Source of the DNA: a virus
Taxonomy: Duplodnaviria > Heunggongvirae > Uroviricota > Caudoviricetes
DNA length: 64,000 nt
IMG/VR virus record: IMGVR_UViG_3300031133_000383
Location: 186,635-250,634 of that record
Direction: 5' to 3' (one strand)
The translations under genes were made by a program, and so were the position numbers. The notes under the pieces were generated by a model. The model was given only the letters and a program-made list of their open reading frames with translations. It was not told where the DNA came from and ran no database searches. Positions 1,218 to 1,403 of this stretch are shown piece after piece. Position 1 is the stretch's first letter. Each line of letters opens with the position of its first letter.

Positions 1218-1310
1218 AAAAAAAACCAGTACGGATACTGGTTTTTGTAAGGAAAGCGATCAGGTAGTGTCTGCCAATAGAATTAGAAGGAACCATAATC
1301 ATAGCCTGAC
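1218..1310 (-). ncRNA. Candidate structured sRNA, single unit (unit A) of the repeat family also found at 4386-4818
   Basis: Minus-strand promoter TTGACT (rc of 1339-1344), 18-nt spacer, TACTAT (rc of 1315-1320). Conserved boxes AGGCUAUGAUUAUGGUUCCUUCUAA ... ACCUGAUCGCUUUCC. Ends in hairpin ACCAGUA-UCCG-UACUGGU (1225-1242) followed by 8 U on the minus strand. Confidence 0.55.
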
Positions 1311-1403
1311 TCATATAGTATTGCACTTTTCTCGAAAAAGTCAATGAATATTGTAGTAAACAATAATCTTTTATGGTATAATTATTTTTTAAAAGGTTGA
1401 CGA

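Follow-up and report, generated by a model that had tools for sequence, protein, structure and literature searches.

A stand-alone member of a structured RNA family in a huge-phage genome and its candidate Ro-like protein partner

What might be the role of a short minus-strand RNA gene that stands alone between two plus-strand genes of a tailed phage? The gene in question, hereafter the solo gene, lies at positions 1218-1344 of a 64,000-nucleotide (nt) stretch of viral DNA (IMG/VR record IMGVR_UViG_3300031133_000383, positions 186,635 to 250,634; Caudoviricetes), the whole of which we call the window. On balance, the solo RNA probably serves, in the manner of a Y RNA, as the partner of a divergent, Ro-like protein of 778 amino acids (aa) encoded in the same window; its transcription, its binding and its cellular role are what we infer from the analysis. 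A role as a partner RNA, rather than as a drifting duplicate, is favored because the RNA, in huge phages and some bacteria, is nearly always encoded beside one large protein with a Ro60-like fold. According to this proposal, the solo gene would produce a structured non-coding RNA of roughly 90 nt, with a host-type promoter starting the transcript a few bases before a P1-P2-P3 hairpin, and an intrinsic terminator ending it. The hairpin would present a loop in which an invariant UUCCUUCUA comes first and a subtype-specific module, AUUCUAUUGGCAGAC in the solo unit, comes second. The covarying stem and the UUCCUUCU loop would form a constant protein-binding platform, and the apical segment would be an exchangeable specificity or effector module: the solo type, a hairpin type with the sequence CUUUUAA, or a tRNA mimic. 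The complex may act on damaged or misfolded RNAs, together with nearby-encoded enzymes of RNA end-healing and ligation.

The solo unit folds as a single hairpin composed of P1 (GUCAGG/CCUUAC, with one C-U mismatch), P2 (GAUUA/UGAUC), P3 (GGU/ACC) and a 28-nt loop. Among the window units generally, P1 is UAAGG/CCUUA, or GGUAAGG/CCAUACC in the B units, and is followed by an internal loop, P2 is GAUUA/UGAUC in the A units and GAAC/GUUC in one B unit, and P3 is GGU/ACC; the loops of the five window units are 28-39 nt long and each opens with UUCCUUCUA. In an alignment of 40 units from 16 loci, which was fitted to the model and in which some of the related loci are close kin (L005 and L016; L006, L007, L008 and L010), 91.7% of the cells are paired and 13 of the 14 pairs exhibit compensatory changes. 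Not one of 500 shuffled controls reached any of the observed pairing measures, and slid registers dropped to 42-51% paired. RNAalifold, applied to a fresh MAFFT alignment of ten solo-type units, returned the same helices with compensatory changes in 12 of 15 pairs; no consensus inner hairpin (P4) emerged from these ten units, and neither of two pairings noted by eye, an AUUGGC-capped mini-hairpin and UUCC/GGAA, was supported. The loop motif UUCCUUCU (TCCTTCT) is present in every one of the 40 units from 16 loci, the following base is A in 38 of them, and the base after that is variable. Because the helices covary and the -35 element TTGACT recurs at the same distance in related genomes, comparison of these sequences supports the view that the solo gene is selected as an RNA.

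Several other interpretations of the unit were considered and rejected. Box C/D (kink-turn) RNA was suggested by a UAUGAUUA...CUGA look-alike in the A units, but the CUGA becomes CUGU or CUAU in the B units, and this identity was rejected because the B units deviate and because the region covaries as a Watson-Crick helix (GAUUA/UGAUC versus GAAC/GUUC). A small peptide beginning MITVPS does not fit either: the frames opened by the box 1 AUG differ greatly in length, the one at L006 16905 reading AUG AAU UAG with a stop at codon 3, there is no conserved reading frame across the homologs, and box 2 is kept in differing frames. The architecture, with two dissimilar boxes, units of about 65-75 nt, and one or two units per gene, each gene with its own promoter and terminator, is unfit for CRISPR-like repeats, RNA anti-CRISPRs or type III antitoxin repeats. 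The antisense of the terminator resembles a Cas12a repeat over 10 nt, but the hairpin of that repeat is not preserved. Loop-loop (kissing) pairing between unit types was dismissed by eye, the shared motifs being of the same sense and not complementary. Mimicry of the 16S ribosomal RNA 3'-end or of the anti-Shine-Dalgarno sequence was prompted by a resemblance, and a search of start regions in the window gave it no backing.

As far as sequence comparison can tell, the strongest clue to function is the co-occurrence of the RNA with one protein family, which holds down to 28-29% protein identity. The related contigs were reached through homologs of the 778-aa protein (59-66% identity), and each carries RNA genes of the family. 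Units lie near a homolog in 14 of the 15 homolog-encoding loci, down to 28% protein identity (Table 1), and L022 is the only locus of the 15 where no unit was found near the homolog. It is this linkage that makes us prefer a protein-partner RNA to a base-pairing regulator, the role implied by the label "sRNA" (small RNA) in the preliminary description. We regard as unlikely the alternative of a trans-acting sRNA in which the CU-rich UUCCUUCU pairs with purine-rich, AGAAGGA-like sites on phage or host messenger RNAs (mRNAs), and the subtype loop extends the pairing and sets the target. As in classic sRNA genes, there are sequence signals for a separate promoter and for Rho-independent termination, U tail included; the pyrimidine motif in the loop is invariant, and the paralogs have different loops. 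However, no GAAGG, GAAGGA or AGAAGG is found within 25 nt upstream of any of the 66 open reading frame (ORF) starts in the window, which are predicted from the longest ORFs. Of the eight AGAAGGA sites in the window, five are simply the antisense of units, and the complement of the solo loop occurs in the window at the level of chance (8 matches with up to three mismatches, one being the unit itself, versus 6.1 expected). The motif is also unchanged across Xanthomonas, Burkholderia and the low-GC host of the window phage, and base pairing would leave both the tight protein-family linkage and the tRNA-like insertion unexplained.

Could the linkage instead reflect a cis-acting leader or autoregulatory operator of the mRNA for the protein, with some copies being relics and the solo copy serving mainly as a bidirectional terminator and promoter spacer between plus-strand genes? 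In L014, and in the case of unit 2 of L026, the unit continues without a terminator directly into the homolog's ribosome-binding site, units occupy the upstream gap in XacN1, Xoo-sp13, Burkholderia and L025, and the solo hairpin has a T5 run on the plus strand. In the window, by contrast, each of the three RNA genes is equipped with a promoter and a terminator, and the protein gene is preceded by none of them. The solo unit, a separate transcription unit 3.6 kb away, nonetheless keeps 87-94% identity, and the conserved positions include loop bases for which a terminator has no use; L024 and L026 also have free-standing one-unit genes with promoter and terminator. A cis-acting leader fits some loci but not the free-standing genes of the window, and we hold it to be very improbable.

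The 778-aa protein (phrog_33734) is modeled by AlphaFold with a predicted local distance difference test (pLDDT) score of 88 and a predicted template modeling (pTM) score of 0.83, and the best structural match of the N-terminal domain in this predicted structure is Ro60/TROVE. The C-terminal half of the 778-aa protein, and those of the Burkholderia and L012 homologs, match NCBIfam NF041916, the MXAN_6230/SCO0854 family of RING domain-containing proteins, at E-values of 3e-43 to 7e-57 but below the score threshold. The scores of 148-193 bits are far under the 600-bit cut-off, the N-terminal part of the profile is not covered, and no RING domain was detected in the 778-aa protein or its homologs; nor is any RNA partner of the NF041916 family described in the literature searched. 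Sequence and profile searches of the PDB, and PADLOC, gave nothing for the protein family, and a protein scan of IMG/VR likewise gave nothing.

A number of observations weigh against a Ro-like partnership for the solo RNA. Foldseek found no match to the protein in the PDB at E <= 1e-3, and Pfam recognizes neither TROVE nor TerD in any of 49 family members. The solo gene is 3.6 kb from the 778-aa protein gene, with three genes between them, and at several loci the units may belong to the 5' leader of that gene, where autoregulation could explain the linkage. The proposed Rsr-binding motif on the Y RNA stem, GNCGAAN0-1G or GGUCCGA (PMC4201824), is present in none of the window units, although the terminal stem is there. 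A tRNA-like module is missing from all five window units, and the one match to the YrlA family, described below, stays under the 69-bit gathering score and is confined to the tRNA-like portion of the model.

In the L012 unit at 5211-5347, the loop holds a closed tRNA-like module whose parts are circularly permuted: a T arm, then an acceptor stem capped by UUCG, then a D arm. Positions 5252-5315 of L012 match the Rfam YrlA model (31.1 bits, E 1.3e-4, model positions 23-85), and YrlA RNAs mimic tRNA and partner the Ro60 of bacteria and phages (PMC4201824). Some jumbo phages have TROVE proteins accompanied by a tRNA-like RNA (PMC7824862). The neighborhood is also one of RNA repair: a polynucleotide kinase-phosphatase gene for RNA end-healing keeps synteny with the 778-aa gene, both in the window and in its relatives L004-L006, and in L012 the RNA units are followed, at 5471-7931, by genes for a PrfH-like RF-1/PCRF protein (194 aa) and a T4 Rnl1-like RNA ligase (378 aa). 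This L012 pair resembles a ribosome or tRNA repair cassette, and PrfH cooperates with an RNA ligase to rescue and repair ribosomes (PMC9304027). At 710-2073 of L025 (MT835874.1, a phage contig from human feces), a transfer-messenger RNA (tmRNA) and four tRNAs stand directly upstream of three to four units, which are then followed by the homolog of 28% identity.

The same features could be viewed as those of a decoy or bait. By this account, anticodon-loop-like heptamers (CUUCUAA, and in other units CUUUUAA and CUGUUAA) or a whole tRNA body would soak up or report host anticodon nucleases, and the neighboring kinase-phosphatase and ligase would repair the damage. The tRNA-like module of the L012 unit, the adjacent RNA repair genes, and the loops seen by eye, of seven nt (CUUUUAA in XacN1 unit 1, L013 unit 3 and L005; CUGUUAA in Xoo-sp13) or six (CUCUUA in L026), are in its favor, and a decoy would be compatible with the Ro-like ribonucleoprotein (RNP) model. 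Yet the pattern pyrimidine-U-NNN-purine-A is low in information for AT-rich loops, and CUUCUAA lacks the closing 5-bp stem that would make it an anticodon arm. No such heptaloop occurs in the solo-type loop, for which RNAalifold gives no consensus inner hairpin, and no nuclease is known for the host of the window phage. A decoy is, in our opinion, quite unlikely.

Further tRNA-like elements can be discerned near the units of related loci. In Xanthomonas phage XacN1 (L019 7602-7677; AP018399.1 about 289,167-289,242, minus strand), a tRNA-shaped element with a CACCA end and its own TTGACA/TATAAT promoter is located between units 1 and 2, in a gap without annotated features; it has no Rfam tRNA match at E <= 0.01. 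A T-arm-like stretch, GATGGTTCGATTCCCGTTC, between a unit and the start of the homolog gene in L027 (4890-4960) may be a tRNA-like remnant. Small apical hairpins were seen by eye in XacN1 unit 1, Xoo-sp13 unit 1, L013 2894-2962, L005 19989-20060 and L026 4870-4935, and their loops CUUUUAA, CUGUUAA and CUCUUA differ mainly at the would-be wobble base of an NUU (Lys/Asn) anticodon. In L027, two RNA genes of the family flank a TnpB-like gene (OrfB_IS605 / Cas12f1-like_TNB, a weak match; 2739-4442), and a 95-aa TnpB-like fragment lies near the RNA locus of L006 (19357-19644).

Returning to the Y-RNA-like partnership, a broader version of it, which we put forward tentatively and consider possible rather than likely, is that the units are the RNA subunits of an unrecognized, widespread Ro60-like RNP. 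Its protein would combine a TROVE-like ring with a TerD domain that replaces vWA, it would occur in huge phages, the Xanthomonas jumbo phages XacN1 and Xoo-sp13, gut phages, and bacteria such as Burkholderia, and its interchangeable apical modules, including mimics of tRNA and of the anticodon arm, would aim the complex at damaged translation RNAs or at the host nucleases responsible for the damage, with the solo type as the ancestral core module. If this is correct, Ro/Y-RNA-type RNPs are more diverse than the cataloged TROVE-vWA proteins and YrlA RNAs, and huge phages would be equipped with particles for RNA surveillance or repair that use several RNA "adaptors". It would also provide the first functional handle on phrog_33734, which has hundreds of uncharacterized members in phages and bacteria. 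The idea is directly testable in Xanthomonas phage XacN1, a cultured phage with both the protein (ORF396) and three units.

The preliminary description regarded the solo gene as a diverging functional RNA with a variable loop segment. That it is functional and under selection agrees with the covariation and with the identity to its orthologs, but it is not a diverging copy, its loop being conserved in L006, L005/L016 and L013; by alignment, the supposedly variable segment represents the best conserved of all the loop types in the family. The solo loop (UUCUAUUGGCAGAC, also written AUUGGCAGAC) is nearly unchanged in three related huge-phage genomes, with near-identical solo-type loops at L006 16983-17049 (UUCUAUUGGCAGACAACU), L005 20067-20130 and L016 4361-4424 (both UUCUAAUGGCAGACUU), and L013 2973-3036 (UUCUAUUGGCAGACAC). 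A degenerate form, UUGG/CGG then A-rich or UUGG-N-A-rich, is present in XacN1, Burkholderia, L014, L015, L009 and L027. The solo unit is closer to its orthologs (94% identity in L006, 89% in L005, 87% in L013) than to the A units of its own genome (76-79%), and it is therefore an old, distinct paralog; for the 778-aa gene, DNA identity between the window and either L006 or L005 is only 67-68%. The orthologs in L006, L005, L016 and L013 are each the second unit of a two-unit gene with a B-type unit ahead, whereas in the window the unit is alone behind its promoter. The L013 and L016 contigs (Ga0247725_1000001, 1.54 Mb; Ga0308158_10000001, 1.86 Mb) share both their phage-like gene order and their RNA genes with the 520-kb L006 contig. 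To our knowledge, contigs of 1.5-1.9 Mb are far above the largest phage genomes, and these two may be concatemers, misassemblies or a much larger replicon.

Membership of the solo gene in the family can be judged from both boxes and from the fold. The unit contains box 1, (A)GGCUAUGA-N4-GGUUCCUUCUA, and box 2, ACCUNNUCGNUUUCC, at the right spacing and in the P1-P2-P3 fold; box 1 as GGTTCCTTCTA has 0 mismatches at 1284-1294, and box 2 as TACCTGATCGCTTTCC is at 1251-1266, so the boxes are conserved as previously described. In the window, GGTTCCTTCTA occurs as 5 exact copies, all inside units, and as 7 matches with at most one mismatch versus 0.63 expected, and the 3' box occurs 5 times versus 0.71 expected. 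The covariance-model search that the preliminary description proposed gave the solo unit 77.2 bits with R1, the model built from the five window units including the solo unit (E 1.5e-17, a rough value, as are all these E-values, which come from a short calibration), and 69.9 bits with the broader model R2. Since R1 was partly built from the solo unit, membership rests mainly on the boxes and on the orthologs in other genomes. Together with the 77.2-bit match, these bear out the earlier proposal of a third RNA gene of the family at this position.

The notion that the family is dispersed did not survive. With R2 and filters off, a search of 72.6 kb of the 323-kb genome, comprising the window and the 8.6 kb upstream of it, found no sixth unit, so that this region has only 5 units. 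In a scan of the JGI metagenomes, the exact box 1 matches on each of three contigs (520 kb, 1.54 Mb and 1.86 Mb) all fall in a single short stretch, and the family is therefore not dispersed in these genomes. The units number four to five and are divided among two or three genes that span a few kilobases. The exact box 1 scan of IMG/VR returned one match, a chance occurrence inside a coding region, and blastn of the first 8 kb found no DNA match in the phage collection. Rfam has no family for the window units at the gathering score or at E <= 10, the terminators alone giving weak sRNA-like matches. The RNA is thus without an Rfam family and the protein without a Pfam family, and neither is described in the literature searched.

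The signals of the solo gene can be read directly from the minus strand, where TTGACT, an 18-nt spacer and TACTAT form a promoter-like pair (9 of 12 matches in the promoter scan) and a hairpin with a U8 run is terminator-like, in agreement with the preliminary description. (C)TTGACT is also upstream of RNA genes in L004, L005, L006, L013, L015 and L016, at the same distance, and TACTAT is also ahead of tandem-locus gene 1 and of the L006 gene at 16121. The predicted transcription start is about 5-8 nt ahead of the unit. The hairpin, AAAAACCAGUA-UCCG-UACUGGUUUUU at 1246-1221, has its run of 8 U at 1225-1218 and is part of the minimum-energy fold of the whole transcript (-22.3 kcal/mol, z = -2.99). 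The terminator scanner did not list it, because the stem extension consumes the first Ts and leaves a tail too short for its rule. On the plus strand the hairpin reads ...CCAGTACGGATACTGGTTTTTG, with an A-run before it and T5 after it, so a second role in ending the 384-1151 gene is plausible and the hairpin may be a two-way terminator.

The solo gene is opposite in strand to both of its neighbors, 384-1151 and 1404-2147, as was originally stated. Both are indeed plus-strand genes, but their description as one paralog family holds only distantly, at 24% mutual identity (E 0.002). The three genes beside the solo RNA at 384-3000 are distant paralogs with 24-27% identity. Similar-sized genes without a known family form runs at 384-3000 and 7370-8053, and many ORFs of about 250-290 aa are found at 37-50 kb. 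The window as a whole, at about 31% G+C, encodes three clustered tRNAs, three aminoacyl-tRNA synthetases, an NAD-dependent ligase, the polynucleotide kinase-phosphatase and an S49 peptidase, and most of its genes have no known family, a profile that fits a huge phage. Its proteins have exact matches on a 323-kb metagenomic contig (ena:ERZ27247402:k141_253576).

Table 1. Features of the window, and placement of the RNA units relative to homologs of the 778-aa protein gene
Feature or locus	Positions	Strand	Basis or remark
Solo gene, -35 hexamer TTGACT	1339..1344	-	sequence reading and promoter scan
Solo gene, -10 hexamer TACTAT	1315..1320	-	18-nt spacer to -35
Solo unit, 64 nt	1247..1310	-	starts about seven bases past -10
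Loop motif UUCCUUCUAA	1283..1292	-	UUCCUUCU is the invariant part
"Variable" segment UUCUAUUGGCAGACACU, conserved solo-type (type 2) loop	1266..1282	-	ortholog alignment
3' box UACCUGAUCGCUUUCC	1251..1266	-	3' strands of P3 and P2, internal loop, start of P1 3' strand
Solo intrinsic-terminator hairpin and U8 run	1218..1246	-	11 pairs, loop UCCG
Tandem-locus gene 2	4385..4602	-	TTGACC-17-TATTAT promoter; unit B 4488-4564; unit A 4415-4482; terminator 4388-4413
Tandem-locus gene 1	4635..4860	-	unit B 4742-4815; unit A 4667-4735; terminator 4637-4664; directly downstream of 778-aa gene
Candidate protein partner, 778 aa (phrog_33734)	4883..7219	-	helical N-terminal domain and TerD-fold C-terminal domain
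Polynucleotide kinase-phosphatase gene (RNA end-healing)	8077..9309	+	PHROG polynucleotide kinase, E 4e-29; Pfam HAD_PNKP
Aminoacyl-tRNA synthetases (unassigned class II, seryl, tyrosyl)	22204-23469, 44106-45389, 56416-57675		three genes
tRNA-Pro, tRNA-Lys, tRNA-Ser	28248-28514		tight cluster
Window			tandem locus directly downstream of 778-aa gene; solo copy 3.6 kb away
L004			unit about 5 kb from homolog, cut by contig end
L005, L006			units 4-7 kb from homolog
L012 (41% identity)			units 64 nt downstream of homolog
L014 (29% identity)			unit directly upstream of homolog, no terminator between
L015			units about 0.9 kb from homolog
Xanthomonas phage XacN1			three units in 496-nt gap upstream of ORF396 (BBA65544.1): AP018399.1 289,373-289,302, 289,162-289,071 and 289,061-288,992, minus strand
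Xanthomonas phage Xoo-sp13			units in gap directly upstream of homolog
Burkholderia cenocepacia			units 208 nt upstream of homolog
L024			units 2 kb from homolog
Gut phage contig L025 (28% identity)			units directly upstream of homolog
L026, L027			units directly upstream of homolog

How does this RNA family compare with known systems? Among Hfq-type trans-acting sRNAs with pyrimidine-rich seeds, the anti-Shine-Dalgarno csRNAs of Streptococcus (PMC3091779) are similar in having stand-alone genes with sigma-70-type promoters and intrinsic terminators, paralogs, and a CU-rich single-stranded motif. Unlike sRNAs of the csRNA type, the family has no complementary ribosome-binding sites in the window, its motif is invariant across unrelated hosts, it is linked to one protein family, and one member has a tRNA-like insertion. 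RsaE/RoxS are further trans-acting sRNAs with a pyrimidine-rich seed to which the family can be likened.

The family is more reminiscent of the Y RNAs (YrlA/YrlB, Yrn1; Rfam RF02553; PMC4201824; phage Ro60, PMC12135203), which are likewise RNAs of about 70-140 nt, often in tandem, encoded beside one large protein gene. In both, the 5' and 3' ends pair into a conserved stem topped by a variable apical module, and in one family member (L012) that module is a closed tRNA mimic; RNA-repair genes are nearby, and the partner has an N-terminal domain whose best structural match is Ro60/TROVE. There are also clear differences. No window unit matches YrlA (RF02553), whose 69-bit gathering threshold is not reached, the tRNA-like domain is absent from most units and present only in L012, and the family instead has the invariant UUCCUUCU loop and the GGCUAUGA / UCGNUUUCC boxes. 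Compared with Ro60, the protein has no Pfam TROVE match, and it has a TerD domain where Ro60 carries vWA. Because the defining features of the Y RNA/Ro60 system are either absent or not clearly present here, the window RNA is not a member of that system; Ro60 with its Y RNA is nevertheless the closest known system, and the window RNA is a variant of it.
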